Source: Cyanidioschyzon merolae (Eukaryota). Taken from it: a DNA stretch of 64,000 nt. Below the pieces are notes generated by a model that was not told the origin of the DNA, made no database searches, and worked only from the letters and a program-made list of their open reading frames with translations. Within the stretch, counting starts at the first letter, position 1. Every line of letters starts with the position of its first letter. Location of the stretch: assembly GCA_000091205.1 (NCBI GenBank), contig AP006492.2. One strand, 5' to 3'. The position numbers and the translations under genes were made by a program. Shown here piece by piece: positions 7,315-60,847 of the stretch.

Positions 7315-9132
7315 TCAGTTTGCGCCAGGCGTCGTAGCTGTCGGATCTCGAACTGATGCCACGGGTTCTGGACGACAATTACCGTCACGATCTACAGACT
7401 CCTGTCCCGCTTCTTGGTTGCTTTCCGATGCAAGCCAGTCACGAATAGCCTGAACCAGGGGCGGGCCCCGTTGCATCTGGATTTGCTCCTGCGTCGACAG
7501 CCTTTTGAGGCCGACCACGCCGGCTGCGAGTTCGTCTTCACCGAGAATGGCGAGCACCGGGATGCCGCGTTCCAATGCATACTGCAGCTGTCGAGCCATC
7601 TTGGGTCGTTCAGCGTACAAACATTCCGCCGCTAGATGAGCGCGCCATAGCTCATCACATAATTTCAGACGCTGCACGAGATCTACCTTGCCAATGCCCA
7701 CCACAAGCACCTGCGTCTTGCTTGCGCGAATGACGCGGCCAGTGGCTTGGGCAAGTTCACGTTCAGCCTCCTCCATTAGGGAAAAGATTCTCTCTATACC
7801 GATTGAAGTGCCTACGCAGGGTACGGGTTTCCCGGCAAAGTCCTCCACCAAACGATCATAGCGTCCACCGGCACCGATAGAGCCCAGCGGTGTTGAACCG
7901 TCCGTGAGCACGGCCTCGAAAATGAGACCCGTGTAGTAGTCTAGGCCGCGGGCGAGGGCAAGGTTCAGCGTACAACGTTCCAGGACATTGCCCATCGCCT
8001 CCAGGTACGAAAACAAGCGCTCGAGATCGGCCAGTGCTTCCTCGGCTCCAAACTTGCCGCAACAGAGGCTGTGGTCGGCCTGGAGCTCGCGGAGCAGCTC
8101 CCTGGGCTTGCCCGCTCGCGTCACAAACTGGCCAATCCGATCCGCACATGGTGCGGTTAGGCCTTTCACGTCGATCATTTCCTTTCGTACAACATCCCAA
8201 GGCTCCTTGTCGAGTTTGTCAATCGATGAGCAAATGGGTCGCAGAAGCTCCTTCGGCACGCCACATAGCTGCAGAATCGCATCCAGTAGACCTCGGTGGC
8301 TCAGTTTTACCTGATAGGATCCCAGTCTCTGGCGATGATACGGGCTCAAAGCCGCAAACTCGTCCAACACTTCAATGAGGACTCGAAGGACCTCAGCATC
8401 CGGTACCATCGGAGGATGCTGACCAGCAATATCGAAGTCGCACTGGTAAAACTCGCGAAAGCGACCACGAGCGATCGCCGGCTGGTCTCGTCGGTACACC
8501 CGACCCAGTTGGTATCGCTTGAGGCTCACAATGCCGTGCGTCGCAAGAAAGCGCGCGAAAGGCACCGTCAAATCGTAGCGGAGGGAAAGCAACTCGCCGC
8601 CCTGATCGGCAATGTCGTAGATGAGCTTGCTCTCCTCACCGTACTGACCCAGAAGCGTCTCTTTCAACTCGAAAACAGGCGTTTCGATAGTCACTGCGCC
8701 GTGGCGTTCAAAAACAGAGGTCACGAGCGCGAAAACGCGTTGACGTATGGCCATCTGCTCGGGTAGGAAGTCGCGGGTGCCCTTGGGCACCTTGCAGACT
8801 CGTCTCCCCGTCGACATCGCACACGTCCTCTCAAGCGCTCTCGTTCGTCGAGGTACTCGGGCACTGCACGAGCGAATGTGTGCAGTAGTTGACTGCGCCA
8901 GGAACGCACTACGAAACGACTTGCTCAAGGCGGCAGTCCGTAACGTTACTGCACAGAACATGAGTAATAAGCGTCGTCCCGAGGGTACGAAGTCGTCTGC
9001 GGCAGTCGACGACTGGCGGCGACGCGGCGATTGCGGCGCTTCTGGTTGACGATTTCTCTTTGTCTTGACAAAACGTTTACGTTGACCACGGATCACAGAC
9101 TGCGGGATGGATATCGGTTGTCGACAAAGCAT
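7315..9132 (-). CDS. HARS: histidyl-tRNA synthetase (class II aaRS) with ~105-aa N-terminal extension, likely an organellar targeting peptide
   Basis: Class II HisRS motifs in the translation: KGTRDFLP, RYDLTVPFARF, KRYQLGRVYRRDQP, GRFREFYQCDFDIAG, GLDYYTG, and anticodon-binding region. Alternative start at MSTGRRVCK (~8817). The N-terminus before it is Arg/Ser-rich. Confidence 0.85.
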   Translation of the reverse strand: MLCRQPISIPQSVIRGQRKRFVKTKRNRQPEAPQSPRRRQSSTAADDFVPSGRRLLLMFCAVTLRTAALSKSFRSAFLAQSTTAHIRSCSARVPRRTRALERTCAMSTGRRVCKVPKGTRDFLPEQMAIRQRVFALVTSVFERHGAVTIETPVFELKETLLGQYGEESKLIYDIADQGGELLSLRYDLTVPFARFLATHGIVSLKRYQLGRVYRRDQPAIARGRFREFYQCDFDIAGQHPPMVPDAEVLRVLIEVLDEFAALSPYHRQRLGSYQVKLSHRGLLDAILQLCGVPKELLRPICSSIDKLDKEPWDVVRKEMIDVKGLTAPCADRIGQFVTRAGKPRELLRELQADHSLCCGKFGAEEALADLERLFSYLEAMGNVLERCTLNLALARGLDYYTGLIFEAVLTDGSTPLGSIGAGGRYDRLVEDFAGKPVPCVGTSIGIERIFSLMEEAERELAQATGRVIRASKTQVLVVGIGKVDLVQRLKLCDELWRAHLAAECLYAERPKMARQLQYALERGIPVLAILGEDELAAGVVGLKRLSTQEQIQMQRGPPLVQAIRDWLASESNQEAGQESVDRDGNCRPEPVASVRDPTATTPGAN

Positions 9133-9351
9133 CTGTCATACTGCGCCCTACCTCCAAACTCCATTTCGCATATCTCCTTTCGGATATACTGGCTGTTTCG
9201 CACGTTCCATCGTGCGGCGGTTTCTGGCTTTGAGCACCCGCCGCCGCGCCCCAACCATTTACACGGATGCATCACGGAGGCAGACTGACATTGCCATACC
9301 GTATGAGGCATCGGCTCGAGGCGCCGTTCCTTCAACACAGACTCCACGTGC

Positions 9352-12157
9352 ATAGTCATTCTGGGAGCCTGCAAGTTCCGCACCCAGACGTACTGTCTGC
9401 TGCAGCGCGAAGCGAAATACCAGGAGTCTACTGCTACCAGGGCGACGCCCAAACACAGCCTAACTGCCCCTAATCCCAGAATGATTTGCGTTTCGGACGA
9501 GCTGCTCAGACCTCACTACAGCACCAGCTACTGGGTAGCGTACGGAGCGCCTGACCCGCGGACTCGTCCGGCTCGCAGGACCTTCCGCCGAAAAAGTAAA
9601 CGTTCCGCAGTATGGAAAACTTTTCCTCCTTTTATCGTTCATCGTAGAGAGGGAATGAAATATATATTTGCTGGTAAATCGAGAGTCTCTGTACAATTTT
9701 TTCATATAGCGCGTTCCATACGCGCACCCGGGAGATCAGGCCGTCACATGACACGACGGGCATGACGCCGCTGAAGAGAAACGTAATATGGACTTGTTGA
9801 CCTGTTCCTCGAACGTATGCGTTGTAACGGTGTTGAAGTCAGAGCAAAATACAGTGTTTGATCTCAATACTATTTCAACCCTCAATTGGTTGTTCCCAAA
9901 AGCTTTTTCGCGGTTTACAGCACAAGCGTTCAAAGTGCGTTCGTTTTCGAGAATAAAAAAGGAAAGTTATGGACAAGAGAGTCGAGGCCTGCGGAGGCCA
10001 CGTGTCACCAGGTTCGACAAAACACTGGAAAACAGTGCGGGGCCCAGAGCGACAGGAGAAGGGGAAAGAGCAAAACTGGGAGCTCGCACATCAACTGCAA
10101 CTCGAAAGACGATACAATGACGAGAACGTAGAGAGAGCCTGTCTTCCAGGCCATCTCAGGGCTCCTTACAGAGAAAAGATGCAGGAGGGCATCAGAAACC
10201 GCGTCCTATCGTAATCCAGGAGTATTTGAAAAGCTTCTCTTTGATTGATGCATTTGGTGAGGGACCTTTACCATGACGTTACGGACATCAAAACAGTCGA
10301 GGTTCCGGAGGAGTTTTTCAGTGTGACCTTCATCCGCCAACTGATGCTTGGCCCAGAGCGAACCTCGACGATAGACGATCGAGTGCGAGCCCTACACCAA
10401 ACATATGCCTTCTACCGCTTCAACGGTTCTCGATACAAGGGTGACTTGGGCATTGACACCTACAGGGCGATGAAGTATCTCGAAGACTTGAAGAGCCACC
10501 TGATCGAAAACCTCGAAAGCTTCATGAACTGCTCCGTCTTCGCGCTCTACGATGGCCTCTCTGTCCGCGGGAGATGGGCGATCATCAATGGCATCACGAA
10601 CGATCACCAGGATGAAGCGGAGATAGAATGCTTCGGTGCGAAAACATCGTACAGGTGTACGTATGAGAATTCTGTGATCTGTGCAGCCATTCAGGAGCAC
10701 CTTGCGGTACCGGGGCTTGTCAACCCTGCAGAAAAGGTATCAGAGATGAAAAGAGATACGAAAAGATTCATCCCCTCATTCTGCGCTATTTCGTGTACCT
10801 GAACCGAGAGCTCGAACGCAAGGCGGAGATGCAGCTGGGTGAAAAACGAAATGGAGCGCCGGAAAAACGGAAGGCTGCGCTTCTGAAGAAGCGCTTTCAC
10901 GTCGTTCCGATACGCAACACCATGTTGCACTTCGTGACCATCGACTCCAGCGTCCTTTACGGCATGATGCAGGAGATCAGTCCGAAGTTCGACGTCAGCT
11001 CGGAGGAGTTCACGGGGATAGACTGGGAGACTCATTGGAAAAATGTCTTCGATTTCAAAGGTATCAGGAAGAGCAACACAGAAGCATTCGCAGGCAAGAT
11101 CGAAACCGATGGGGTATGCATATGTGTACACTCCAGGCGCTTGAGCAGGCATCGTCATATCCTGTCATCGTTTTCGCCCTGGACGAAGCATCAAAAGAGA
11201 GAGGCGATCCATATGCTGTACGAGCCGCAGAAGAGCGACTTTGTCGTCGGCGTGGACCCTGGAAAGAAGGATATCATGGCCGTCGCTGTGCCATAGTATG
11301 CAAAAGACGGTATCAATGCCAACTTACGCCAAATGGACATGCGTATGTTGAGGTTCTCGACGGCTAGATTCAACAGAGAGTCGGGGATGATAGGTGCCTT
11401 GAGGCAAACCGAGGCTTGGAACTCAAGATTGAAGGAGCACCTGGAAGCGGTCAGCAAAGTGACGAGCTGCGGAGCGGACTTTCGGACCTATCTGGAATTC
11501 ATGGAAACGCACGCTGCGCATGATGGGGACCTGTGGAAGGAGTACATAAAGCCCCGATGGGTTCGTCTGCCTATGGACCTGTACGGAGGGGAGCAGCGTG
11601 CATTCGCCAATTTCTTCAATGAGTTCTGCGCCCTCAAAGAAGGCAAGAGTCAAAGGCTCGTAATAGCGTACGGAGCAGGGAGCTCGTTGCCCGAAAACGG
11701 GAGCACACCGGCACCGTCGACACAAGCGTTCATCGAGTGCGCAAAGCGTTTTGTCACTGTCGTAATAGTCGAGTTCCGAACGACCTGCGTGCACCATGAG
11801 CTGGGCTGTACACTCCAGAAGGTCAGGATGGGGACACAGCCGCCGAGCTCTTCGGGGAAAGAAAATCACGGGGAGCGAACAGAGCGGCCGATGCCACAGA
11901 GGGCGCTAGTTCGAGGACGCCTTCTGTTGGACACTACAGTCAGCGCCATGAAACGCAGGGAGTTCGTGAACCGAGACTTCAACGCCGCCATGAACATCAG
12001 GCGATGTGCTCTGCTGAAGACGAGACCCCCGGAGCTTACGCGAGCGAACTTCGAGGGTAGCTTCCCGGGCTCGACGTGTGCTGGGGGAAACTGAATCCGA
12101 CAGCAGTCGACCGGTCAGAAAAGGATGGGAAGCGTCTGCGAGTGGGGAGATATATAT
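9352..12157 (+). mobile_element. TnpB/Fanzor-like element, copy 1 (~2.8 kb). 5' GC-rich leader ~9352-9600, AT-rich spacer, short upstream ORF 9969-10214, then a degenerate RuvC-nuclease ORF and a conserved 3' tail.
   Basis: Homologous along its length to 56374-59150 (copy 2) at nucleotide and protein level. Internal RuvC-I and RuvC-III motifs (see pseudogene feature). Confidence 0.7.
10245..12094 (+). pseudogene. TnpB/Fanzor-like RuvC nuclease. ~616 codons in three ORF pieces (10245-10802, 10793-11296, 11333-12094), with one frameshift near 10795 and one in-frame TAG at 11297 inside conserved sequence.
   Basis: RuvC-I motif 'SDFVVGVDPGKKDIMAVAV'. Cys/His cluster 'EFRTTCVHHELGC' following a 'TS' as in TnpB zinc-finger regions. 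RuvC-III signature 'EFVNRDFNAAMNIRRCA' (D-x-NAA-x-NI). N-terminus 'DIKTVEVPEEFF' shared with copy 2. Confidence 0.65.
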
Positions 12158-13199
12158 TAACCCTCCACTGTTGTGAGACATTTTTCGTTTTTTTTACGGT
12201 ACGGAAAGAATGAGCATAAAACAGACTGGAAGCTGCGCGATTCGGTTTAGCGGCAGGAAGTGCTGCGCAGATGACTCGCCATTGCCCATGCAGTGGCAAT
12301 ATTCTTGCTACCAATGACCATTTTGCGTGTTCAGGTGGTGTCCATCGAGGAAGGACCCCAATATTCCGTTTTGGTGTCGTGCCTTTGGTGGCACCCATCG
12401 CCTCCTTCGCAACATCCTCTTTAAACTCAACATACAAGCCCGGATAACCGGCAGCGTGCACACATCCGGGAAGGCTTGCTAGGTCCATCGTCCATGCACC
12501 AACAAAATTGTGCCTGGAGACACCCTCTGCCAAGAAGTCGCTGCGCAACTCGCGCCAACAATTCTACGCAGGAGTCTGAGCAGTCTCCGAGCAGTCACCA
12601 GCCGTAGCTGCAGCCACGGATTTTCGCGACACACGCTCAAATGCTTTCCTGGCGCCTGGAAGTTTACTCAATCAGCGCAATGCGGTACATGCCTCTGGTA
12701 TTTCGCAGCACGCATTGTCGTCGTGCATGGACGCTGAAACGCTGTCTATCAAAGAATCCTCTACTCGTATTGTGACGCTGAACACAGCCGCGACTTCACC
12801 GAAATGCGTGCCCCAGTGTGTGGACGATGCGTAGCGCCGTACGACATCAACGCTTCTCCAGTGCCTATGCGAGGTTCATACGGAGCTCTGAACTGCGGGC
12901 TCTGTTCCGGACTTGCGCATTTTCCCGGACTTGGTTTCAGAAATGTAGTCTAGACGTTTGAAGTGCAGCAGTAGGGTCTTGGAGATTCATGCGTTGCTTT
13001 AGGATTCTTGGTCGTCTTTTCGATCTGGCGCTTTCGATTCGCTGCCGACGGAGCTCGTAACTTTACGGGAATCAGGATGATTCGCGGCAGCTTCGAACGA
13101 TGGTTCATAAACTAACCGATACCAATATGCAATGCAGACCCACAAGCCTTCAGGGTTCTTGTTTCCTAGCGTGCAGCATGCGCACACCGTGCATACTTC

Positions 13200-13828
13200 A
13201 AGTTTTCGATTTTTCAGGCACTGGGAAAACAGTGAGTGCAGTGATTCGCGCCAGCGGACTGAGGTGGAAAAGTAGTCGACACCGTTTCTTGATGGCATTC
13301 GCACAAGCTCATTCCATAAGCTTACTGAACCTGGTCAAGCCCAGTAATCAGTTCCGCTCGAAAAACAAGTCATCCCCTATTTGGGGCCATCATCCCCAAG
13401 AGAAACCCGTCATCGTAGTGGGCGTTCACGAACGCGGAAACCGGGGTCGTCATCGAGGATGGCCCCAGGTACCCCCCAGACGACGTGTACTGAGCGTTGC
13501 AACAATCGTGTACGCAATGCAAAGTAGCCTTCGGACGAGCGTGTATGCTGGACGTACGGGAAGACCTGTCCAGTGTCAAGTGTGACCGCTGCGAAGCGGA
13601 CACCGACGCTGTATACGAATGAGCTGACTGTAGCGAGCGACGTGTAGGTGGCAACTCGCGCTTGTGCATGAAATGCGTCAACAGCGGCTGCGGGTGGCGA
13701 AACCGACACTTTCTACATTGCCATGAACGTCCATTGATTGCCAACAAGGGAGCTGGAGAGACAGATGAGACCGACATTGTTACAGCCGCGGATACGAGAC
13801 AGGAATGGAAGCAGTCGGAGAAAAAGCC
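13200..13828 (+). repeat. interspersed repeat family B, copy 1 (truncated, ~630 bp)
   Basis: Near-identical to 37693-38300 of copy B3 and, in reverse complement, to part of 27117-28160. Shared spurious ORF text (AVIRASGLRWKSSRHRFLMAFAQAHSISLLNLVKPSNQFRSK). Confidence 0.8.
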
Positions 13829-18632: not shown

Positions 18633-18651
18633 GGTGCCCTGGTTGTATACT

Positions 18652-21147
18652 CAGATAAATAAATACTTGAACACCTGTACCAGCACGGCTTTCTTTGCTA
18701 TACCTTTCTTACCTCGCGAATATTCAACAAAAGGTTGTATCCCGTAGGTGGGAGAACGGTCGCGGGAACACTTCCTGCCGTCTGTGCTAGCTTGCCAAGA
18801 AAACGGTCTTTATTGTCCATGTCAGGTATTCTCTGGTCGGCAGGTAGATCAGCCGCTGTTCTCGTGGTCCTTTTGCTGCAAGTCGTACTCACCAGACAGA
18901 GCACATTTGGCTCTGTCTGCACTGCATTCCCGACATGAATGCGTTCCACTCCACATATATTATCTGCGAAATAGCATCTAAGAGACACAAGGTGTGCAAT
19001 CTCCGCACAGTTGAAACGGACGGTGATAAAGGGACGCACACGGACACAGGAAAAAACGCGCCTCTGTGCGAGAACGTTCCGCGCTGAGCTCCGTGCTGCC
19101 AGTTTCGCGGGGGCATGCGAACGCTTATCGTGCAGATGGCAGATGTTCGTCACACTCGATGAGACCTCGTTCGGGAGAAACGGGAGACATGTGTACGGGC
19201 ACCCAGAGCGGGAGCAACAAGTGTTCACAGAGAAGCGACACACGCGCATTCCGAGAGTATCTGCCCAGACGGCGACTGAGTCGTATGTTTTGCTTTGCGT
19301 CGGAAAACGGGTCGAAGTCTTGAACGCCTCATGCTTGTTCTTCGCAGCATTCCACGGCGTCTCGTTCTTACACGGCTCCGTGCGGCTCTGCGTCAACGTC
19401 GCTTTCCATCACCCTGAAGAGGTCAACGAGCACGCAGGTGACATTGGCGCTGCGCTGTTCCTCGTACCAGCCTATTCGCCCCGGTCGAGTTCAGTCGAAC
19501 GCATCTGCTCTGTTGGCGAACGCCATTTCCATGGGCACCAATGCGCAGGCGAGTCTTTTACATCCGCGACTCGGTTCGATGGCGAATCGTTCTTCGACAA
19601 TGCGTTGTCTGCTATTGGTGCACAGGAACTGCTGTGTTGCTGCTCGGCTCGTGGGCGGAAACGAGCGGAAACGAGCTCTCCGGTCGGTTGGGGCTCCCAG
19701 TTCGAGAAAGGTGAGGAATGGATCCTCAAGTAGAACGAGACGTATATATAGGAGGGAGCGAGTTTCTGTATCAACGCCTGTCCATCGCGTCTGTATTTCG
19801 AGAGAAAACCGGGCATGGAGTGTTGCCACCGCATCCATGCCACCTCGCATAGTTAAGGGGCACAAGAAGAAGGAACTGGTATATATAAGCATCAACGTTG
19901 CGTTCGAACTACTTTGCAAAGCGCGGTGGCGGCGCTCGGACAAGGTTTCTCGATAACAGGAAAGAAATACCGGAAACGTTTATCCGGACGATGGAGACCG
20001 ACGGGATGCCAACCAGCATGCACCTTGCAGCACGTATGCCAGAGTCGAGCAGCCAGACTCATTTCCAACCGTTCAAGGTTGATGAACAAACAGAGACTTT
20101 GTGGTCGGGGTCGATCCGTGTCACTCGGCATCATAGCCGTCTCCGTACCCCTGCATCAAGAGGGCAGTGCTAAAGACCTACAAGGAGAGCAGATAAAGCA
20201 GCTCGAATTTTCCAGTGCTCGATATGATCGGCAGTCGGGCATGGTAGACGCCAGGCGGCATACCGTCCAGAGGAATGGTTGCTCGAGAGCCCATCTCGAC
20301 GCCCTGAGGACGGTGGCGCGCAGAGGGTAACGCTTTGTGCGCCTCATGCAGAGGGGGAGCTCATGAGCGTCAAACTGGCTCCAGCGGACGATCTTTGACA
20401 AGAACGCGTGGTGCCGAGCAGGGCACGCACATGGTGCTGGCTCCGCAGAGGCGAGAAGCTCGTGTTCGCAGACTTTGTGGTTGATGTGGGAAACGAAGTG
20501 ACCGCCCAGTCGGGTCGATTGACGGTAGCCTATAGCGCTGGACCTACTCCAGCTCACAAAGTCTGCAGTGATGCTCGCTCCCGTCGAGAGCTTGCTACAA
20601 GTTCAGGGATTGATTCTGCACGATTTCGACCGACGCATTCACACCGTCATGCACGCAGCACGATCTCGGGTACAGGCTGAAACTTGTCGAGAAGAGGCGA
20701 TTGAATTAGAGACCGTTGCACGAGATGGTGTGCGATACGCTGCTTGAACGCCCGACGGCGAGGCAATCGGAGATGCAGAGACTGCTGTGGTGTGCTTTCA
20801 CCAGCCACAATGTGCTCAGGTTCTTTCTGCATCGCGAGTTGATCGCCTCGATACACATCTGGCAATGTCTCGTGGTTCCGAAGCGCACAGCGGCTGTGTC
20901 GAGCGAACTTTCGGGAAAATCGTCTAGTTCTGCTTGTTGGCATTGCACTGACTGCCTGCAAGCTGTCGGTAAAAGCGCATCGGTGTTCAAGAACTGTCCG
21001 ACTGAATGCCCGCTCGGAGCATAGCGCTGGTACGGTATGGGTGAGCAATCGAGCGAGGCTGAAGCGGCCTGCTCATACAACGGGATCGGTTTCTCGGGGC
21101 AGAGGATGATTGGTAATGGTGTTCGAGTATTCGATCCTATTGGGCAT
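18652..21147 (+). repeat. interspersed repeat family A, copy 1 (full length, ~2.5 kb), apparently non-coding
   Basis: About 97-99% identical to 45524-48003 and, in reverse complement, its first ~1.2 kb to 42982-44176. Begins '...cagataaataaatacttgaacacctgtaccagcacgg', ends '...ggtaatggtgttcgagtattcgatc'. Only overlapping antisense ORFs of arbitrary composition. Confidence 0.8.
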
Positions 21148-27008: not shown

Positions 27009-27116
27009 AAGCACCATCCATACGCCCAACTGACGCTGCCAATGACAACGATCAAGTTTGCAACGAGGAGAAACGACGACGTAGTGAGCGGATTTTTCGA
27101 CATGTTTGGGAACCTT

Positions 27117-28160
27117 CACCAATGTCAGCATAAAAAGGCACGGTTCTTCGAACTCGGGCGGGTACACAGATCTTCAGATCTCGCCCTAAATTACATAAAA
27201 AACATCCCTTGTCTGCCCTGGAACGACTGCTTCCATTCCTGTCTCGTATCCGCGGCTGTAACAATGTCGGTCTCATCTGTCTCTCCAGCTCCCTTGTTGG
27301 CAATCAATGGACGTTCATGGCAATGTAGAAAGTGTCGGTTTCGCCACTCGCAGCCGCTGTTGACGCATTTCATGCACAAGCGCGAGTTGCCACCTACACG
27401 TCGCTCGCTACAGTCAGCTCATTCGTATACAGCGTCGGTGTGCGCTTTGCAGCGGTCACACTTGACACTGGACAGGTCTTCCCTTACGTCCAGCATACAC
27501 GCTCGTCCGAAGGCTACTTTGCAGTGCGTACACGATTGTTGCAACGCTCAGTACACGTCGTCCGGGGGTACCTGGGGCCATCCTCGATGACGACCCCGGT
27601 TTCCGTGTTCGTGAACGCCCACTACGATGACGGGTTTCTCTTGGGGATGATGGCCCCAAATAGGGGATGACTTTTTTTTTCGAGCGGAACTGATTACTGG
27701 GCTTGACCAGGTTCAGTAAGCTTATGGAATGAGCTTGTGCGAATGCCATCAAGAAACGGTGTCGACTACTTTTCCACCTCAGTCCGCTGGCGCGAATCAC
27801 TGCACCCACGGGTGCCTTGAAACAGAAACATCGAAAACATGCAAGACGCGTGATGCGAGCATGCACTATGTGACAAAACAAAAATAATGCATTCTTTTGC
27901 GTATGAATTCGATGGTCGCGGCTGTTATTTCATGAACCTTGCCCTAGAGCGCAGCGAACCATATCGATTTCGATTACGTACCGAGTTCCTGTAACAAAGC
28001 GTCAAAGGAGTGACTCCGAAAAGGCAACTCAGCACCAGGAAACTACGTATGAATCCTGAAGCGCTTCTTGCCATCGTTCGAGTGCCGGGGCTGCACATCT
28101 AGAAAACGGTCGGAAAAGCATGCAAAGTACGATCACAGCAGGAAGGTCAGAGTTTCATTT
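27117..28160 (-). repeat. interspersed repeat family B, copy 2 (~1.05 kb, inverted)
   Basis: Reverse-complement identity to 37372-38415 (B3). Contains a T10 run at ~27668. Starts ~110 bp after the FAN1-like stop. Confidence 0.8.
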
Positions 28161-28570
28161 CAATCAAACATGGTTGCAGCTCGAAAGTCCAGGTGCTTCG
28201 CCGAACCCAGCTCGGCTCTTTGGCACAGACTGCTGGGGAGAGAGCTTCGCTTAACGACACCTGGTCAGGCTCTGGATCGAGGATATTGTTGTCTTCAGCG
28301 ATCCCATGTTTCTAGACAACTTCCCGTTTACGTCTGTTCTTTGCGATCCTCTCATGTACCTTTATAATCGAAAATCATCATGTTTAGGATGTGTGCCTTG
28401 CCGCAAGCGAGCCTACAGCATCAATGCCAACATCGGGTGCGTGTCAACGCGTTCGCTGCTTTTGTATGCGGCGCCGAGTCAACTTCGACAAAGCCTTAGC
28501 GTTCTGTGATCGCTAGATAGACACCCGTCCCCAAATGTTCTTGGCCTGCTTGTTCGTTCGCGACAAAATA

Positions 28571-33562: not shown

Positions 33563-34026
33563 ATTCGCGATAGCAGCCCAGAGAGAAGCTCGCCTGGCTT
33601 TGCCTTGAAAGGGCATTGCCGGGATGCGGGAGACCTGCATAGCTGCGTGTGATCGCTACGGTAGCTACATCAGTCAAGAGCTCGCGACTGAAGTGTACCT
33701 TTGCCGAAAATGCGTGGCACATGTCTCATACGATCCTAACGTAGCCTAGATGACTTCGTGAACTAGTCTGGACATTTGTAGCCTTATGTTCTCTGATGCT
33801 TCAGTCTGTATATGAGGCGACCGCAGATAACGGGTTTATACCTACCGACTTTTCACGCGACACATAAAAAAGTTATGGGCGCCTTGGACTTGCTCGTTGC
33901 GAGCCCGACACTATCGAAGAACGTCGCAATCCCAGAAAATTGCTACTGTTGTAGTCTTTGAACTCAACTTGGTCTCACCCTCGATGCTTGTGATCAAATG
34001 CATTCTCGCAGTGTATCGTAGGTTAC

Positions 34027-34900
34027 CGAAACCAGTATGAAATGTACCACACAGATCTGATACCGATTGCCTTCAGGATAATTCCTACTAAACAGTGCAA
34101 CGAGGACTGCATTCCTCCTTCAGGCCAGTGATACCACAGTACTCAGATGGTTGAGGAACACTGACAGAACCACGAATATGCGCTCAGCGCCAAAAAACCG
34201 ATATTTTCAAAGCCTGCTTGCGGTCAATGGTGTAAAACGCCCCGTTGATGACTCTAAACAAAGCAAAAGCCACGATAGTAGCCACCACTGGCGCCTGTGA
34301 GGCTCAACATCTTGTTCGTGTGGTTCTGGAAACAAAACACTGGGATACAGTCGCAAAAACAGAGTCCTAGATCAGGAACGGCCATCTTCCACCGAAACCG
34401 CATCGACAGCATTCCTGGAATGTTGCAATCCGCATAATGCAGCGGGACGTCGGTCTGTTGCTTTCAGTCGATGAGACTTCCTTCTGGCGAAGCAGTCCGA
34501 GCGTATATGGGTATTCGCTGCGAGGGAGCCCGTTCTAAGTACAATCGAACGCGAAGAGAAACGGGATACCATCATCTGTTCGAACCGCAGTGGATTCATT
34601 TTGCGACCTCAGTTTGGACTCCCAGTCAAGGCTCATACACAGCATCAACCACTTTATGGAATTATTGAAGACTGTCCCCTGACGCCTAGCGATGTCCTTG
34701 TATTGGACAAGGTGATCATTCACCTTTCCCTTTGCGTTCGAAGTTTTGCCGATTCTATCGGGGTAGGGCTGCTTTCTGTTCCTCAGTAGGCTTCGTATTT
34801 TAACGGCATCAAAGGAGCGTTTCGTATCGTGGAACGTAATCATCGCACCACTGGCCGAGTCGCTGAAGCGTTCAGCACACAGTGACTCCGAGGCACATTT
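34027..34900 (+). repeat. repeat family C, copy 1 (874 bp). 5' part of a composite 1.35-kb unit together with the adjacent TnpB-like fragment.
   Basis: Reverse-complement identity (>95%) to 48936-49809. Shares spurious ORFs (MNPLRFEQMMVSRF..., MKKCASESLCAERF...). Confidence 0.8.
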
Positions 34901-35099
34901 CTTCATTCTTGCGAAAGTCACTCTCCGTCGGAGAAGTTCCCCAACTTAGGGCGTAAACAAGCGCATTCATTTGAAGAAATGAAAAGCCAGGGGACCTAAA
35001 GGACATGGAAGCCGAGGAGGCTGAAGGGCCGGTGTCGCCGGCTCCCGCAAAATAAACGAGCGGAATCCTGTTCTCGCTGACCATCGAGCGAAGAAGAGA

Positions 35100-35410
35100 G
35101 GAGATGGGCGAAACAAGGCATTTGTCCTACGGGGCGATGAAAAGACTAATGTGGCACAGAGGGCACAAATTCTGATAATCATGGCATTAATGAGTTCCAT
35201 CAGAGGCACCAAACGCATGGAGTTTGTGAAACGAGAAATTAACACTGCAATCAGTATCAGCGGATGTGCGGTTCTGAGGAAGAGGCCTCCGGAGTTGAGA
35301 TAATCCAAATTTGTGGGGGAATTTCTCAAGGTGGAATTCCACGGCGACAAGTTGAAGCCAGTAGTAAGGGGCCGGCCGAGAACGACTGAGAGGCGTCTGC
35401 ACATCGGTGG
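35100..35410 (+). pseudogene. TnpB/Fanzor-like C-terminal remnant (ends '...RMEFVKREINTAISISGCAVLRKRPPELR*', stop at 35303) plus conserved 3' tail (to ~35410)
   Basis: Aligns to copy-2 C-terminus 'KQRMEFVNRGFNAAISIRRCAVLKTRSAELTRA'. Tail 'gactgagaggcgtctgcacatcggtgg' matches tails of the other copies. RuvC-III Asp replaced by Glu. Confidence 0.6.
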
Positions 35411-36969
35411 CGGACGTTTTGTCTAGGGCGGGCGGTGCGCCGCTCACCATCAAACTGCACCGCCTATACAACGTTTGTCGCTCGCAAAGCATTCATTGTT
35501 TTCGGTGTGTAGAGCGTGGGTATATGATTCCCCACGTTCGTTCAGTTCTGGGCCGTCTGGGGCGCCAGGTACGTGCACCTCTGGGACTCAGTGCTCGACC
35601 CGTGAGAGTCTGGCACCGCGATCCGAGGATTCCCAGCTGGTCGCACCGCTATATTTGCTGGGTAGGTGCGCTAGCATGTTCGGAGCAGCGTCTGCAGCGT
35701 CCACTCGGGAGCCTTCTGCAGAAGATGTGTAAGAGAGGGCTTAGTATGCCCTCAGCAACTCGTTCTAGTCCTTTGGAGACGGTTCCCGTTCCTACGATGG
35801 GAGAGTCTATCACAGAAGGTACACTTGTGGCGCTGTTAAAACACGTTGGCGACGCGGTGAAAGAGGACGAGGTTGTGGCACAAATCGAGACGGATAAAGT
35901 CACGGTTGATGTTCGATCTCCTGTATCTGGAGTAATACGGGAGATCATGGCAGCCGAGGGTGACAACGTTACCGTTGGTAAGGACTTGTTCCGAGTTGAG
36001 GTGGGCGCACAAGGCGAAACAGTCGCGGCACAGCAGCGCCAGGCAGAAAAGCTTTCTCAGAGTGAACCTGAGCCCAATCACATCGAGCCGCAAGAAGAGC
36101 GATCAGGAGGGCCAGCAGGGTCGCCACCGCCACCACCGGCAGACGTTGAGCACGGTGAAGAGCACGCAGAGGCAGCGGCTGCGCAACTCACGGGGCGCTC
36201 TGTTGTCCAGCGTGGAGCAGCGGCAGCTGCAGCTGCAGGCGCGCTCCTGCAACAGGACGAAGCCGGCGAGCGTCGTGTTCCCATGAGCCGCATGCGGCGT
36301 CGTATTGCAGAGCGGCTTAAGCATGCTCAGAATACTGCTGCTATGCTAACGACATTCAACGAATGTGACCTGACGAGCCTTTCGGAAATGCGCGCAAGCT
36401 TTAAGGATGGTTTCGAGAAACGCTATGGGTCAAAACTGGGATATATGAGTGCCTTTGTGAAAGCCTCAGCGATTGCACTCGAGGAGCAACCTGAGGTGAA
36501 TGCTGTAATCGATGGCGATGAAATTCTCTATCGAGACTACGTGGATATATCTGTCGCAGTAAGCACGCCTACCGGACTTGTGACCCCGGTGCTGCGTGGA
36601 GTGGAGAAGATGAGCTTTGCGGATATTGAACTGCAGCTGGCCGATTTTGCAAAAAGAGCTCGAGAAGGTCAGATTCAGTTGGAGGAGCTCCAAGGCGGTA
36701 CGTTCACGATCTCGAACGGAGGCGTATTCGGCAGTCTTCTCAGTACCCCCATCATTAACATGCCACAATCGGCAATTCTGGGCATGCACGCGATTCAGAG
36801 ACGGCCAGTCGTTGTCGGAGACGAGATCGCTATCCGGCCTATGATGTATTTGGCCCTGACGTACGACCATCGCTTAATAGACGGTAGGGAGGCAGTGACG
36901 TTTCTACGTAGAATCAAAGCGCTCATTGAGGATCCGAGAAGAATGCTAGTTGGCGTTTATGGCTTTTGA
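35407..36969 (+). CDS. DLST: dihydrolipoamide succinyltransferase, E2 component of 2-oxoglutarate dehydrogenase (mitochondrial)
   Basis: Single lipoyl domain '[42 protein letters not shown]'. Catalytic '[24 protein letters not shown]'. SucB-like '[30 protein letters not shown]'. The Met at 35524 is a plausible true start. The first 40 codons overlap the TnpB-remnant tail. Confidence 0.85.
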
Positions 36970-37371
36970 AAGTTCCTACAGATAGATATCTGTTGCAGAT
37001 CTCTTAACCTTCGCCTCTGGTAAATCCTGCTCATGCTATTCGGAGCACTCGGTACGCTTTGCATCGTGCTGGGCGATCGCGCATGCTGCTCCCAGAAGAC
37101 GACGCAAACCAAAGCATTCCAGAATAATCCGCATATAGCACGTGTTGGTGCCCAAAGCACACCGTCTCAGCAAGCGCAATGTCGCTGAAAAGATGAGCCT
37201 ACATACGCTCACCAATCGCAAACTCGAATTAGAGCCCGTCTAGGCACCGCAAAGCTTTTCTGTAACCGCTGGTGACCACGGAAGTGGATCCGACGCCGCG
37301 GCACGCGTCTGCGGTAGGCTCGGGACCCAGACGGCTACAGCCGTCCGACCCGTCTAGTGAAGAATCAAACT

Positions 37372-38415
37372 GAAATGAAACTCTGACCTTCCTGCTGTGA
37401 TCGTACTTTGCATGCTTTTCCGACCGTTTTCTAGATGTGCAGCCCCGGCACTCGAACGATGGCAAGAAGCGCTTCAGGATTCATACGTAGTTTCCTGGTG
37501 CTGAGTTGCCGTTTCGGAGTCACTGCTTTGACGCTTTGTCACAGGAACTCGGTACGTAATCGAAATCGATATGGTTCGCTGCGCTCTAGGGCAAGGTTCA
37601 TGAAATAACAGCCGCGACCATCGAATTCATACGCAAAAGAATGCATTATTTTTGTTTTGTCACATAGTGCATGCTCGCATCACGCGTCTTGCATGTTTTC
37701 GATGTTTCTGTTTCAAGGCACCCGTGGGTGCAGTGATTCGCGCCAGCGGACTGAGGTGGAAAAGTAGTCGACACCGTTTCTCGATGGCATGCGCACAAGC
37801 TCATTCCATAAGCTTACTGAACCTGGTCAAGCCCAGTAATCAGTTCCGCTCGAAAAACAAGTCATCCCCTATTTGGGGCCATCATCCCCAAGAGAAACCC
37901 GGCATCGTAGTGGGCGTTCACGAACGCGGAAACCGGGGTCGTCATCGAGGATGGCCCCAGGTACCCCCGGATGACGTGTACTGAGCGTTGCAACAATCGT
38001 GTACGCAATGGAAAGTAGCCTTCGGACGAGCGTGTATGCTGGACGTACGGGAAGACCTGTCCAGTGTCAAGTGTGACCGCTGCGAAGCGGACACCGACGC
38101 TGTATACGAATGAGCTGACTGTAGCGAGCGACGTGTAGGTGGCAACTCGCGCTTGTGCATGAAATGCGTCAACAGCGGCTGCGAGTGGCGAAACCGACAC
38201 TTTCTACATTGCCATGAACGTCCATTGATTGCCAACAAGGGAGCTGGAGAGACAGATGAGACCGACATTGTTACAGCCGCGGATACGAGACAGGAATGGA
38301 AGCAGTCGTTCCAGGGCAGACAAGGGATGTTTTTATGTAATTTAGGGCGAGATCTGAAGATCTGTGTACCCGCCCGAGTTCGAAGAACCGTGCCTTTTTA
38401 TGCTGACATTGGTGT
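37372..38415 (+). repeat. interspersed repeat family B, copy 3 (~1.05 kb)
   Basis: Identity to B2 (inverted) and partially to B1. Internal imperfect palindrome around 'ggggccatcatcccc...gaggatggcccc'. Confidence 0.8.
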
Positions 38416-44176: not shown

Positions 44177-44606
44177 GTGGGAAATAGAAAAAGATCAAAG
44201 TAGACCGCCTCTATAGAAGAGCAACTGTGTACGAAGGCCTCTGCCTGAACTATATGCAGCACCTAGATCCAATCATTGAGAATACCGTTGCACGTTCGAC
44301 ATGTTTCTAAAGACACATTCTAGATACGCACACGTTCGCAGATGTTTCAGGTATTTGGATGCTCGTCGCGTGTCCGCCAGCAGCCTCATTGAGGAACAGC
44401 TCATTATCCGCTTGACCAATTCTTTCCAAAAGCAACCGATTCGATGTGCGCCTACGATGCGCTGGGGGTCGCCCACGGCATGTTCTAAATTTGGTTCCAA
44501 GTTTGTCCTTGTTATTACAGAATTGATCGGATTGGGTGCAGCGGCGTCCGGCGCCACCGCAGTGCCGAAACGAATGAAGAGTCGTCTTCGTCTAAGAGTA
44601 ACAACC

Positions 44607-48003: not shown

Positions 48004-48481
48004 CTTACTGCGTTTGAAGCAACCTAGAGTCCTGTTCCAAATAATCTCTTTTGCCCGAGATAGAACCCATTTGCATTTGCGCCGATATGAGCAGGTCCGT
48101 GTGGCAACGTGGATGAGAGCGTTCTGGAACTCGAATCAGAAAGGTGCGTTCCCTCTCAGCATCCAGCTAAACGCAACTTCTGAAACACGAAACTCTATTC
48201 GATCCGTAGATTCGACCAGCGAATATTTCGTCTTCCCTTGCTCAGAGAATTTTGTACGGATAGAGATACGATGGAACCGCGGCCTCCGGGAGTTCCGCTC
48301 ATGCACATCAACTGTTGCAACGGGTGGTGCTTTTGGCAGTCCCCATCGCACTGCAAGAACCTGGTCCATCTGCGTTGCGTCAACGAGCACCACGACAGAA
48401 GAGCTACGAATTTTCACAGTAATTGTTCTCAGATGGCGTCGCAACATACATTTGTTCAATGGAACGAAAACGTTTCGCGAC

Positions 48482-48890
48482 CGGAGGATAAATTAAGCCC
48501 CACCCGCAGACGTCTCCCAGCCATTTTCGACTGGTCTCCTGCTATCGTTTCAGTTTTTATCCAGCCACATTTCGAGACTGGTAGGCCCTCCCACAAAGTT
48601 GGATCGCCTCTGCTCCGCGGGCCTCGTCTGCAGCACCGCACATCTTCTGATATTGAGAGCGGCGTTAATGTTTCTGTTTATGAACTCCATACGTTTCTTG
48701 TCGCCGCTTGTACTCTCCAGTGCAAGTGATACTCGAACTCGTGCCCTCTGTGCTATTTGCTGCTTTGCCAGCTCTCTGTACTTTTCTATTGCCGAAGCGC
48801 TTCGCTGGCTCTTCTCCATTGCGAACTTTTGAAGAGTAGACCCCAGCTCATCCCATAGATTTCTTGATTTTGAAAATGAATGCACTACTT
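48482..48890 (-). pseudogene. TnpB/Fanzor-like C-terminal remnant (ORF 48550-48885: '...KKRMEFINRNINAALNIRRCAVLQTRPAEQRR...') plus conserved 3' tail (48482-48549)
   Basis: Aligns to copy-2 C-terminus. RuvC-III Asp replaced by Asn (N-x-NAA-x-NI). Tail reverse-complement 'ggctgggagacgtctgcgggtggggcttaatttatcctcc' matches the copy-1 tail. Confidence 0.65.
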
Positions 48891-48935
48891 TCTGCTCGTA
48901 GGTGAGGGTCGTGCCGGAGGGATAAGGAATTGCAG

Positions 48936-55612: not shown

Positions 55613-56373
55613 TCAAAACCAAGAAGGACCAGAGCGGAGGGCTCCATCGGACCACAGCGCTAACATCGCTGCTGCAGGGCGATCCTGCCTTTGTTTCTGG
55701 AACTCTTTGTTCACCCCAAAGATCGAAATTTACTCTAGGTGTTCGACAGTTATCGTCTCGCGTGCAGCAAACAGAAGCGATTGCTCCGGCTGAGCGAGAT
55801 AGCGACAGTCGGTTTCTCTCGCCACCTTGGGTATGGGCTAAGCTGCTTACTGGCTCAGAAAATCAACTGAGCAAACAGTGCCCGACCAATATAGGTGGCT
55901 TTACGCGCAGCGCTGCACACTGAAGCGTCGAAGTCGAACGAGAAGTTCATTCATTGATTGACTGCAGCGCTTTGAGGCAAGCCTATCCTCCGGCGCGCCT
56001 TTCATGATGGAGTGGGACGACGAAGCGACGTGACCGCTGGCATTCGCGCGATGCAGCTGCGGCAATTCTTATTTCCGACGACAAAACGTTCACAATTACC
56101 GATGGATACCATATCGTGGGATGGGTATTGGCTTTAGGGAAAGCGTCCATCATGCTGCTGCACCCTACCTGCAAGTTCCATTAATTATATTTCCGTTCGG
56201 ATACCCTGGTCGTTTCGCACGTCCTGCGGTGCGCCCGGTGTATCCTGTATGCACCCGCCTTTGAGTTTGTACCGCTAGACAAGATGCATCACAGAGAAAG
56301 AACGGTTTTGTCACACCACAGAGCGCGTTGGCCCGAGGCATCGTTCATCTGAAACGGGGTCGGGGTTCATATC

Positions 56374-59150
56374 ATTCTGGGAGGCTGCAAGCTGTGCAGA
56401 CAGACCTACTGCCTGCGACAGCGCGAAGCGATTTAGTAGGAGTTCGCCGCTGCAAGGGGGACGCCCAGACGCTGCATGCCCCATAATTGTCACAGGATGA
56501 ACTGTGTAGCGGACGGGCTGCTCAGATCTCACTACGGTACCAGCCACTGCAGAGTTGCACAGAGCAGCTGCCCGGCAGGCTCATCGGGCTCCGGTGACCT
56601 TTCGCCTGAACGAGAAACTTTCGATGATCCGTAAAGCTTCCCTCCTTCTAACGTTTTCTGTGGAGGGGGAACGAAATTGTTATCGATCTGCTAGTTAGTG
56701 TTTAGTATTTGTTCTTTGCTCTCTACAGTGAGCTCCATAAGCGCACCTCCATATCCGGCATGCATGATACAAGACGTGCATCTTGCTGTTTAAGGGAAAC
56801 TCGATCCTGAAAAGTCGTCCTCCTTTTGTGCTAATGTAGAAGGTGTATTTACGTTCAAGTCATAGCAAAATTACAGTCATTCATTTCAATTGTGTTTCAA
56901 CCCTCAAGTTAGTATATTCAAGTGATTTTTCGCGGTTTGTAGCTGAGGCGCTCAAAGTGCGTTCGTTTCCTCAAATAAAAAAATAAAGTTATGGAAAATG
57001 AAGTGGAGGATCCTGAAGGGCCCGTGTTGCCCGCTGCCGGAAAAAAGTAAAAACAGTGCCGAGGATAGAGGAACAGGAGAAGACAAAGAAGCAGGGGGGA
57101 GACGTCAAAACGAACTCGAAAGACAGCACTACGACGAGAATGTAGTGCAAGCCTTTCTGCTATGGCATGTCAAGGATCCCTACAAATAAAAGTTGCGGGA
57201 GGCCGTCAGAAACCGTGTCGAGTCGTACTCCACGAGTATTCTTGAGGCTTCTTCAGGATTAAGGCATCTGGCGTAGCACAAGTATCGCGAAGTGACGGAC
57301 CTTAAAACAGTTGAGGTTCCGGAAGAATTTTTCGACGAAACCTTTATTCGTCACCAGAGGCTTGTCACAGAGAAATGTGGAAGAGAAATGAGCGAGCCTG
57401 TGTCCTCCACGAAAACTTCGCCGAACATCGCTTCAACAGAACTCGATACAGGGGAACTCGAATATTTAGAGATACGGTACAATGAATCATCTCACGAACC
57501 TGAAGAACCATGTGACCATGAACCTCAAAAGCTTCATGATACGCGCCGTGTTTGCGCTTTACCAGGGCCTCTCTCACAGAGCGAGATGAGCGATTATCGA
57601 TGGCATCACGAGCGATAATAAGAATGAACAGGAGATAGAATTCGTCGACAAGAAGAGATCACACAGGAGAAAGAAAGAAGTCTCTGCAATCTGTGTGGTA
57701 CTGGAGCTGGCCAATCCGGTAGAAAAGGTATCAGAGATGGAAAACGATGGAAAAGATGTTATTCCATCATTCTGTGTTAAATCGTGATCCTGAATCGAGA
57801 GCTCGAACGCAAAGCGGAGGTGGAGCCGGCTGTGAAAAAATGAAGAGTCGGAGAAAAGGAAGGCTTTTCTGATAGAAAAGCGCTTCAATATCGTTCCTTA
57901 ATGCAACATCGAGTGGCGCTTGATGACCATCGACTACATAGCCCTCCATGGCATCATTAGCGATATCAGTCCGGAGTTTGATGTAACCAGGAGAATTTTT
58001 ATGGTGAAAGCCAGGATACTGTTTGGAAGAATATATTCGATTTCAAAACTTTCAACACAAGCAAGAAAAGGTATCCACGGGAATCATCGAAAGCGATGGG
58101 GCATCCATATGCGTACCCTATCGGCGCTTGAAGGCGGATCGGTCTTTTCTGTTTTCGTTGTTGCCCCTAGCGAAGCATGAATAAAAGAAGGAGGCAGGTC
58201 CTATCACGCATGGGATGCAGGAGGACGTCATTGTCGTCAGCGTTGACCCTGGGAACAAGTATATCATGGCAATCGCAGTATCCAAGTCTGGAAAAGACGG
58301 CATTGACTGTAACTTACGTCAAAAAGACATGCAGCTTTTGAAGCTCTCAATAGCGAAATATTACCGAGAGTCCGGAATAATGCATGCAAGGAAGAAAAGC
58401 GAGACGTGGAATTGAGGAGTGAAGGAGCACCTGGAAGCGATCAGCCAGATGACGAGCCGAGGAGCGGACTTTCAAGCTTTTCTGGAATTGATGAAAATTC
58501 GCGCTGCTCATTACGAGGCGCTGTGGAAAGAGTACACAGAGACCTCGTGGGCTCGTCAGCGTACGAGCCTGTGCGGAGAAAAGAAGCGTGCATTCACCAA
58601 CTTCTTCAATCAGTTGGGTGCCCTCAAGGTAGTCAAGAGTCAAAGGCTCGTAGCAGCGTGCGGAACAGGGCGCTGGGCGTCCAAAAAGGGAACATTCCAG
58701 CTCCATCTACAAGAGCGTACAAAGAGTACGCACATCGTTTTCTCACAGTACCTATGGATGAGTTCCGAACGTCATGCATACACCATGAGCTGGGGTGTAC
58801 GCTCCGGAGGGTCGTGACGGGAAAGTGTCGGTTGGGCTCTGATGATATCGAAAATTACGGAGAGCTAATGGAACAGAAAATTGAAAGGAGAGCGAAAGTT
58901 CGAGGACTACATGCATTAGTGAGTACAAGCAGCTGCAAGCAACGTATGGAGTTCGTGAATCGAGGCTTTAACGCTGCGATCAGTATCAGGAGATGTGCGG
59001 TGCTGAAAACAAGATCCGCGGAGTTGACAAGAGCCAAGTCTCTGGGGCAATCTTTCAGACTCGAAATGTGCAAGAAGAAGCTGAAGCCGATAGCAGGCGG
59101 CTGGTCGAAAAAGACTGGGAGGCGTCTGCACGTCGGTGTATAGACATAAA
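56374..59150 (+). mobile_element. TnpB/Fanzor-like element, copy 2 (~2.8 kb), more degenerate than copy 1
   Basis: Collinear homology to 9352-12157: leader 56374-56620, upstream ORF 56998-57189, N-term 'DLKTVEVPEEFF' (57292), RuvC-I 'VIVVSVDPGNKYIMAIAVS' (58215-58415), Cys/His cluster 'EFRTSCIHHELGC', RuvC-III 'EFVNRGFNAAISIRRCA', conserved tail 'gactgggaggcgtctgcacgtcggtg'. Confidence 0.7.
57292..59143 (+). pseudogene. TnpB/Fanzor-like RuvC nuclease, multiple frameshifts
   Basis: ORF pieces 57292-57618, 58215-58415, 58419-58817, 58406-59143 in different frames carry the conserved motifs listed for the parent element. Confidence 0.6.
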
Positions 59151-60847
59151 CTCTATGGTTGTAAAGGATTCGCCGTTTCTTTCATCCTCGGGGAGATTAT
59201 TCAACGCCCTTGTCGGATGGAAATGATGCACAGAACCGCTTGCTCTCTTAAAGCCTTTGATTCTATTCCAAACTTTTCACTAGGTTATAGCCTCGGCATT
59301 CCAGGCTTAGCTAGGAAGACTTACGGATTTCAACGTAGTTTAAGCACCCGAGATCGTCTACTCGGATTGGCTCCATTGAAGCTTTTTGTGGCTGGAATTC
59401 GTTACGTGAGCAGAATTAGCATTATTCGAGACCCACTAAGACAAGGTTTCATAAAATAACCCATATTATTCTCCGACTTATACATACAATCTTCCGCTCT
59501 TATCTTTTCCTAACATTTGGTAAGGTAAATCATGCATTCCACAAGTCTTCGAGTTTTGTGTTTTGAGACAGCTCGGGTGCGCAACAATGTGCGCCTCTGA
59601 ATTGACGGAAGAAATATTCCACGTCATCGCTTGACGACTTTTTACCAAGAGCATCCCGGAAGTTTACATAATCTGTCATTTCAAAAACTTAACTCCCTTC
59701 GGAACAGAAATCCTCTTTTCTCGAGGGCCGCTGACGAATCGTAATTCCACTACAGACGCCTTTCACGTGCTATGCTCTCGGAGGCTCCACTTTCTTCTGT
59801 TTGCATGGGAAAGTTCATTCGACTCGGACGTAGCTCGTTGTGACGATCCCTTTCAGTGGAGCGTGCGTCAATGCTACGCGAGATTAGAGCAGAGATGAAT
59901 CGAAATTTCACGGCTTGCTCTCAGTCTGGGATTTTCGTTCCGGTGCTTGTGTGACCGGGTTTAGCATCGCTTTTACGAATCTTTTTTAATGGGAGAGTGT
60001 GCGCTTCCATGTGCAGCGGATAGAGTACATGCTGATCGGATCTCCTGGAAGAAATCCGTGATCGCATTGTGAGGCACCTGGTGGGTAAACAGAGGAGCGC
60101 ATCCAAAGCAGCCTCCTATATCCCTCAAGTGCATGTACATAGCGATAAAGCAAGCGATCGCGCGCTGCAGGGCAGCGATCTAAGGAGAAGGAGGAGATGT
60201 GGTGGACGTATGCGAATACCTGACCACAGGCAAATGCCACCTCTGCGAAGGGCGCATATGGGTTGTACGCAAAGAAAATGAAAATCAGAAGCGAAACGTA
60301 GATCCTAACTGCCGCCTATGCATAGAACGCGTCTACAATAGCCAGAAAGTGCGAAATGGAGAGTTAAGCACTGAGATCAACATCCTTCGACTGCTGGCAA
60401 CAGAGCTGGAGAGACTGGAGATACTAGCTTCATTAAAGCTTGAGATAAGGGAGAGGAAAAAGAAGCAGTCGAACAAAAGGACCACATTTGCTGATATTGG
60501 TATCCATGACGAGAGACCCAAAATTTGGTGTGTATGCCTTGGTTCGTAAAGTGAATCCGCTCCGTTTTATTTTGACCTGGGTGAAGATGCAAACGAAAGA
60601 CGCAAACTGAAAAGACACTTTTGTACTAAAACATTCAGAATCTGCGCTGTGCGTCTACACTTGGTTCCATACAATTTGCGCATTGTTATAATACGCGCAA
60701 TACGCGCTTACAGCTGAGAGCGAGTTCGGAAGCAAAAGATCTGAAATAGCAGGAATCCAGCACAGTCGCTTACCGGGAGAAAATAAACCGCGTCGGCCTA
60801 GAAGTCAGAACCGAGCACGGCATTGTTTCCTGCAATAAAACGGAAAC

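Follow-up and report, generated by a model that had tools for sequence, protein, structure and literature searches.

The shared 3' tails of four decayed Fanzor1-like copies in Cyanidioschyzon merolae: transposon right ends and a plausible ancestral ωRNA

Four decayed copies of a Fanzor1-like element

A stretch of 64,000 nucleotides from the genome of the red alga Cyanidioschyzon merolae (contig AP006492.2 of assembly GCA_000091205.1), referred to as the window throughout, harbours four loci related to the nucleases TnpB and Fanzor, all of which share a short sequence at their 3' end. An earlier note on this DNA had proposed that the tail is under selection as RNA or DNA and not as protein and is a candidate module of the omega RNA (ωRNA) type, the guide RNA of such nucleases. 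Our analysis indicates that the four tails probably represent the 3' ends of paralogous, now decayed members of a single Fanzor1-like family, two of them full-length (copies 1 and 2) and two 5'-truncated (remnants 3 and 4), and we infer by analogy with characterised Fanzors and TnpB that the ancestral element probably encoded an ωRNA at this end. Here we report the evidence for the identity of the copies, the coding content and boundary of their tails and the predicted structure of the right end, and weigh the alternatives; the coordinates of all features are collected in Table 1.

The host is a hot-spring red alga of the Cyanidiophyceae, and the loci are pseudogene copies of a Fanzor1-like transposon, Fanzor being the eukaryotic form of TnpB; the TnpB-like identity originally given to them is upheld in the form Fanzor/TnpB-like. 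The conceptual protein of copy 1 carries the RuvC motifs VDPG (VGVDPGKKD), VEFRTT (VVIVEFRTT) and NRDFNAA (NRDFNAAMNI); the family consensus reads GADPGNTN, PVDEFRTS and NRDFNAAINI, and the split-RuvC D...E...D catalytic columns are invariant or near-invariant in alignment A1. The same conceptual protein retrieves 86 homologues, nearly all of them unannotated metagenome proteins, and a profile built from 18 family members matches SpuFz1, the Fanzor1 of Spizellomyces punctatus (PDB 8GKH and six other entries), with E = 1.2e-4 over ~360 residues from RuvC-I to RuvC-III. Only the family profile achieved this, a phmmer search of the PDB with a 253-residue open reading frame (ORF) of the window having returned no match. 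Pfam searches with the window ORFs found nothing either, and likewise for close relatives, which are precomputed as DUF8286; PF07282, the Cas12f1-like TNB / Zn-ribbon domain, appears in distant homologues only (P0083 with 26.6 bits at a cut-off of 26.3, and P0066 with 15.3 bits).

At least 528 related loci were found in metagenome contigs (designated by L numbers below); of 93 related copies, only 10 have their last 300 codons intact. Since so few are intact, classical dN/dS was dropped and codon-position conservation was measured instead against the consensus frame of an intact ORF reconstructed from 61 aligned related copies. The element is ~3.1 kb in size and no transposase gene was seen within it. 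The intact family proteins (L001/L004 and the consensus of subfamily A, described below) contain a variable number of ~19-residue acidic/lysine-rich tandem repeats (...PATQEVQDNDFVV..KHEEKKEA...) that sit directly upstream of the RuvC-I DPG motif.

Not one of the four window copies retains an intact ORF; each is disrupted by stops, frameshifts or truncation. Copy 1 starts at about GACGATTTCTCTTTGTCTTGACAAAACG and closes at about ...GAGACATTTTTCGTTTTTTTTA, the right boundary being taken from an alignment of eight subfamily-B copies and the left from an alignment of left ends; its defects include an in-frame TAG (11294-11296) and at least two frameshifts, near 10790 and 12045. Copy 2 closes at about ...GGATTCGCCGTTTCTTTCA and has many stops in its translation, with a TAG at 59141-59143. 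The two remnants retain only the last ~350-400 nt of the element and are about 72% identical to other copies. Remnant 3 has an internal stop in its translation and a TAG at 35424-35426, followed by a post-stop right end that reaches to about 35498; the match of the subfamily-A right-end profile covers 35388-35494. The frame of remnant 4 continues to ...GRETFSFH and a TGA (48458-48456) that coincides with the end of the subfamily-B homology. The earlier note had spoken of 'all four copies'; the four tails are real, but a fifth Fanzor-like fragment (VRGLLRW...PRDLNRPTNIRKCSVLPVRP), far more decayed and belonging to a different subfamily, lies at ~41020-41150 on the minus strand and lacks the GGGAGGCGTCTGC tail.

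An orthologous empty site, sought in order to fix the boundaries, was not recovered: the only contig that overlaps the window, L002, carries the same filled copy 1 locus (window 9707-12572) at 99.1% identity and differs in the tail only in the length of the hairpin-loop TA repeat and of a T run. The dead copy 1 is fixed across closely related strains.

The tail motif encodes the C-terminus of the nuclease

A pattern scan that allowed at most one mismatch found the motif GGGARRCGTCTGC at exactly four positions in the window, 12127-12139, 35388-35400 and 59117-59129 on the plus strand and 48506-48518 on the minus strand. The chance expectation is 0.44, and four matches were reached in none of 100 shuffles. 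The motif is thus common to the four loci as the earlier note had stated, and the strings quoted there are found in the sequence at the correct coordinates; the tail quoted for copy 1 is also present, but it extends to 12165 and not merely to the end at 12157 that it had been given.

Translation of each of the four tails in the homologous frame gives (G/E)(K/R)RL(R/H)(V/I)G. Intact relatives terminate in ...GRRLHVSWRRFV (in a longer stretch, ...GGRSKKTGRRLHVSWRRFV) immediately before the stop codon, and relatives at only 30-40% identity terminate in ...QRVGKxIKC. The occurrence of R-V-G-centred ends in intact and distant relatives alike implies that the C-terminal peptide is conserved at the protein level across the family; GGGARRCGTCTGC encodes this peptide, G-(K/R)-R-L-(R/H)-V-G. 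Across the seven tail codons the differences between the window copies comprise four that are synonymous (AGG/AGA, CGA/CGG, GTG/GTC and GGG/GGT), three that are conservative (K/R, R/H and V/I) and a single radical one (G/E).

The apparent location of the tail beyond the stop codon in copy 1 had been a mainstay of the case for protein-independent conservation, and it proves to be an artefact. A deletion of one nucleotide near 12045 shifts the frame onto a premature TGA and yields a truncated ORF (11333..12094), which is why the tail of copy 1 seems to follow the stop; the homologous frame passes through the tail without a stop and stays open as far as 12216, reading ...DRSEKDGKRLRVGRYILTLHCCETFFVFFTVRKE up to its stop codon. 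The argument from frame-independent conservation therefore does not hold, and the bases that had been ascribed to selection at the RNA or DNA level are codons of the conserved C-terminal peptide.

The degree of conservation leads to the same view. Copies 1 and 2 can be aligned over 3.1 kb with 66-69% identity (~68%); 40-nt windows average 68±9% element-wide, and those over the tail, with 62-78%, occupy the 24th to 81st percentile of all element windows. Among the 61 related copies, the tail codons LEAVVGGRSKKTGRR show mean pairwise identities of 0.81/0.83/0.74 at codon positions 1/2/3, a relaxation of the third position equal to that along the remaining ORF; the last nine codons alone lose the codon periodicity (0.71/0.76/0.75), and the post-stop right end is conserved about as much as synonymous sites. 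Neither the windows of copies 1 and 2 nor the codon positions of the 61 copies reveal nucleotide conservation beyond what the protein explains, and the tail is conserved no better than the rest of the element. The similarity of the tails reflects common descent together with past selection at the protein level.

The element runs on to a defined right end

The tail codons are followed by more of the element, up to a defined right end. The earlier note had stopped short of it; the homology goes on for ~40-50 nt more, to about 12196 in copy 1, and the form of this extension separates the family into two tail subfamilies. Subfamily A is the majority and holds some intact copies as well as remnant 3. 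Its stop codon (TAG or TAA) is located within ...GACGTTTTGTCTAGG and is followed by 62 nt more (GGCGGGTTTCTCGCC ACTACTGTACACCGC ... terminal hairpin ... GGCGTTTGTT), across which mean pairwise identity is 0.64-0.78 before it drops sharply to 0.26-0.33. Subfamily B consists of window copies 1, 2 and 4 together with the copies in L013, L026, L042 and L049; here the RVG codons are followed by a hairpin and then by a common block, ...GTGAGACATTTTTCGTTTCAYTGA, where similarity stops (at about 59184 in copy 2 and 48456 in remnant 4). The frames of remnant 4 and L049 both finish with ...FH before the stop. A search of the window with the subfamily-A profile found remnant 3 only and no solo right-end copies.

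The tail and its extension hence span the region from the 3' end of the nuclease ORF to the right end of the transposon, and this is where characterised Fanzors encode their ωRNA (PMC10432273, PMC10530073); on the position of the tail the earlier note was right.

Comparison of the left and right ends of the element yielded only short and ambiguous similarities as terminal inverted repeats or target-site duplications. The left end (...GATTTTTCTTTTCGATGACAAAACGTTTAC; window 9048-9075 and 56061-56088, and L021, L026, L037, L052 and others) resembles the subfamily-A right terminus CGTTTTTCTTTTGAAAGACGTTT in direct orientation, with a score of 27 against a null of 15.6±3.2 that was reached by 1 of 500 shuffles; within copy 1 itself the match is not significant. 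In addition, the reverse complement of GACAAAACGT at the left end matches ACGTTTTGTC at the stop codon of subfamily A letter for letter. Judged from these letters, the element ends may carry either short inverted repeats or direct subterminal repeats of the IS605/IS607 kind. Directly past the inferred right end, the independent subfamily-A copies L016, L040, L049, L054 and L075 share GTTTGTTT(T/C)CAGGGG, which could denote either an end that is a few nucleotides longer in that lineage or a preferred insertion/target motif.

Predicted RNA structure of the right end

When the terminal 130 nt of subfamily A are folded copy by copy, the sense strand has a mean z score of -1.85, with 39% of the copies below -2, as compared to a mean of -0.97 for the antisense strand (P = 2e-5). 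Three windows in the interior of the ORF give z scores of -0.36 to +0.12 (Mann-Whitney P between 1e-9 and 1e-13 against the terminal 130 nt). The recurrent predicted fold is a rod of ~100 nt followed by a terminal hairpin. The rod would be formed by the helices 25-40:115-126, 44-47:97-100, 52-57:92-95 and 61-69:83-91 (columns of alignment A2), whereby the 5' arm of the inner stem would be GGGAGGCGTCT, a part of the tail motif, and its partner AGACGTTTT at the stop codon. Four or more distinct sequence forms of the terminal hairpin exist, and its mean energy is -12.4 kcal/mol in the sense and -7.7 kcal/mol in the antisense orientation. Consensus folds range from z -1.5 for the terminal window of the majority consensus to z -4.7 for a consensus built by hand; the latter was discounted for possible bias in the choice of variants, and we relied on the per-copy statistics.

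In subfamily B the hairpin directly after the RVG codons has an analogous counterpart in L013 and L042 with a different stem, GGGTA...TACCC. The terminal block of copy 1 is predicted to pair back onto the tail motif (GGGAAGCGTCT with AGACATTTTTC). The terminal hairpin of remnant 3 is destroyed (-1.5 kcal/mol, z +1.0).

Table 1. Coordinates and properties of the Fanzor1-like copies, their tails and their predicted folds in the window
Feature	Position	Strand	Description
Copy 1	9048..12196	+	Full-length decayed Fanzor1-like element, subfamily B
Copy 2	56061..59184	+	Full-length, heavily decayed, subfamily-B tail
Remnant 3	35154..35498	+	5'-truncated copy, subfamily A
Remnant 4	48456..48851	-	5'-truncated copy, subfamily B
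Copy 1 deletion and premature stop	12035..12094	+	1-nt deletion near 12045 (gap relative to copy 2 at ...ACGCGAG-CGAAC...) and premature TGA 12092-12094
Copy 1 tail codons	12124..12147	+	GAT GGG AAG CGT CTG CGA GTG GGG = DGKRLRVG (homologous frame)
Copy 2 tail codons	59114-59137	+	TGRRLHVG
Remnant 3 tail codons	35385-35408	+	TERRLHIG
Remnant 4 tail codons	48521-48498	-	AGRRLRVG
Subfamily-B hairpin, copy 1	12142..12168	+	GTGGGG, AT-rich loop, CCCTCCAC; directly after RVG codons
Terminal right-end block, copy 1	12175..12196	+	GAGACATTTTTCGTTTTTTTTA; common to subfamily-B copies; similarity stops after the block
Copy 1 predicted fold	12090-12210		-35.8 kcal/mol; z -2.38 sense, +0.64 antisense
Copy 2 predicted fold			z -2.03 sense, +0.04 antisense
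Remnant 3 predicted fold			z +0.65 sense, -0.69 antisense
Remnant 4 predicted fold			z -0.75 sense, +0.46 antisense

A plausible ancestral ωRNA and the alternatives

In the active ancestor, the last ~20-25 codons and the right end would probably have been transcribed together as the ωRNA scaffold, with the first ~15-20 nt of the flanking DNA serving as the guide; the same right-end DNA would have doubled as the transposon end. An ancestral ωRNA is plausible by analogy with known systems; it finds support in the position of the tail and in the thermodynamic structure of the younger subfamily, which is biased to the sense strand. A number of observations weigh against this interpretation. Covariation is marginal: among 64 subfamily-A tails (RNAalifold and column counts) helices do appear in the consensus, but ~77% of cells are paired with few double-sided changes, and one slid control equals the score of the proposed helices. 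The check by alignment, covariation and folding that the earlier note had suggested consequently has a divided outcome, with unusual structure in the subfamily-A terminal 130 nt on the one hand and few compensatory changes on the other. The copies are related rather than independent, so that the P values of the folding comparisons are inflated, and as most copies in the family are pseudogenes most of the variation represents neutral decay. The consensus fold of subfamily B amounts to -2.29 kcal/mol with three compensated pairs (RNAalifold, eight tails), remnants 3 and 4 fold no better than usual, and a search of the whole 64-kb window against Rfam 15 at the gathering threshold found nothing. 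Finally, the subfamily-B frame may run to the terminal TGA, and the extra ~50 nt might then be coding rather than scaffold. Whatever the ancestor encoded, the copies in the window are relics, with all four nuclease genes dead and their structures partly eroded, and nothing here shows either selection at the RNA level or a present function.

Three other explanations have to be considered alongside descent from a Fanzor1-like family with an ancestral ωRNA. Chance or low-complexity similarity, which has nothing in its favour but the shortness of the motif, is refuted by the shuffles and by the occurrence of the matches at the same position of alignable homologous elements. It is also unlikely that the tails are under RNA-level selection independent of the protein, perhaps as ωRNA-like modules that still work, for instance as solo guide loci used in trans by intact Fanzor paralogues. 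This explanation can draw on the location at the ORF 3' end and right end, which fits known Fanzor ωRNAs (PMC10432273), on the folds of copies 1 and 2, which surpass those of shuffled sequences for the sense strand alone (z -2.38 and -2.03), on some intact relatives in the same metagenomes that make a trans-acting protein conceivable, and on the precedent of the solo 'ghost' ωRNA loci of S. punctatus (PMC10432273). It has to contend, however, with a tail that is conserved no better than the remaining dead element and a motif that is coding and varies as coding sequence does, with the unremarkable folds of remnants 3 and 4 and the ruined terminal hairpin of the former, with the negligible consensus structure of subfamily B and with the want of solo right-end copies in the window.

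The post-coding tail could instead be a DNA signal only, that is a transposon right end with an inverted or subterminal repeat or a hairpin that a transposase would recognise, devoid of any RNA role. We rate this as improbable as an exclusive account, if slightly less so than continuing RNA-level selection, and it is compatible with an ωRNA reading. The sharp limit of homology is typical of a transposon end, GACAAAACGT and ACGTTTTGTC are exact reverse complements, the left end resembles the right terminus in direct orientation more closely than nearly all shuffles, and the terminal hairpin is kept in several sequence forms as in ends of the IS200/IS605 type. Yet the 3.1-kb element shows no transposase gene, the left/right match falls short of significance within copy 1, and the sense-strand bias, which depends on G·U pairs, suits RNA somewhat better than DNA; moreover, every characterised Fanzor or TnpB right end doubles as an ωRNA template (PMC10432273, PMC10530073), so that the two roles are not mutually exclusive. 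We favour decayed paralogous copies of one Fanzor1-like family with a probable ancestral ωRNA.

A bolder version of this reading, to which we give little credence, would confine the scaffold largely to the last ~25 codons, with the RRLxVG codons forming one arm of a stem, and would have the right ends of dead copies still transcribed and loaded in trans by the few paralogues that are intact. If that were true, a streamlined red-alga genome would contain dispersed 'ghost' guides.

Published Fanzors come from across the eukaryotes, rhodophytes among them (PMC10530073), and among the papers listed by a literature search for Fanzor in the Cyanidiophyceae none links the two. What is new is at most an unannotated Fanzor1-like family in the Cyanidiophyceae, ωRNAs at the 3' ends of such elements being already established. 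If the ancestral ωRNA is real, this would be a Fanzor1-like family that has so far escaped annotation, its proteins being labelled 'hypothetical' or DUF8286. The family is abundant in red algae that are thermoacidophilic and have very small genomes, and among its intact members one could look for compact RNA-guided nucleases that tolerate heat. For the window itself the result is mainly corrective: shared ancestry and a C-terminal peptide explain the tail, and the loci are relics.

Other repeats and genes in the window

A 962-bp repeat is present at 34011-34972 and, as reverse complement, at 48874-49835 with 95.7% identity. The repeat lies 5' of both remnants and is oriented alike with respect to each; ~180 nt separate it from the start of the Fanzor homology in remnant 3, and 23 nt in remnant 4. 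Both remnants are truncated beside the same unrelated repeat; it could be another mobile element that prefers Fanzor sequence, or the product of a segmental duplication. Further young repeats with 95-99% identity are located at 13176-13817, 18648-21142, 27114-28162, 37371-38417, 42973-44177 and 45516-48010, including a 2.5-kb pair (18648-21142 / 45516-48010) and inverted 1.2-kb copies, and by the standard of a streamlined red-alga genome the region is unusually rich in repeats. The HisRS gene in the neighbourhood shares 72% identity with Cyanidium caldarium, in keeping with a cyanidiophycean host.

Comparison with characterised Fanzor and TnpB systems

The closest point of reference is SpuFz1 (Saito et al. 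2023, PMC10432273), whose ωRNA consists of a 75-nt scaffold across the 3' inverted repeat and a 14-15-nt guide in the flank (PMC10432273). The two systems share a related protein family, an organisation as multi-copy eukaryotic transposons and many degenerate copies. They differ in that no clear 30-nt terminal inverted repeats were found here and the window copies are dead; moreover, the scaffold proposed here would partly overlap the last codons.

Such an overlap has its own precedents. The ωRNAs of GtFz1 from Guillardia theta and of ISDra2 TnpB overlap the 3' end of the nuclease ORF, and the candidate described here would likewise overlap the C-terminal codons, by about 20-25 codons as compared to 17 in GtFz1 (PMC10432273). 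In contrast to both, the overlap in the algal family is predicted from folding, and the synonymous sites concerned are without extra constraint. A further likeness to bacterial TnpB is that the subfamily-B frame appears to reach almost to the end of the element.

The 'ghost' solo ωRNA loci of S. punctatus (PMC10432273) are strongly conserved and expressed, whereas remnants 3 and 4 have diverged from other copies to the extent given above and have an eroded structure; in both cases, truncated remnants have retained the right end of the element.

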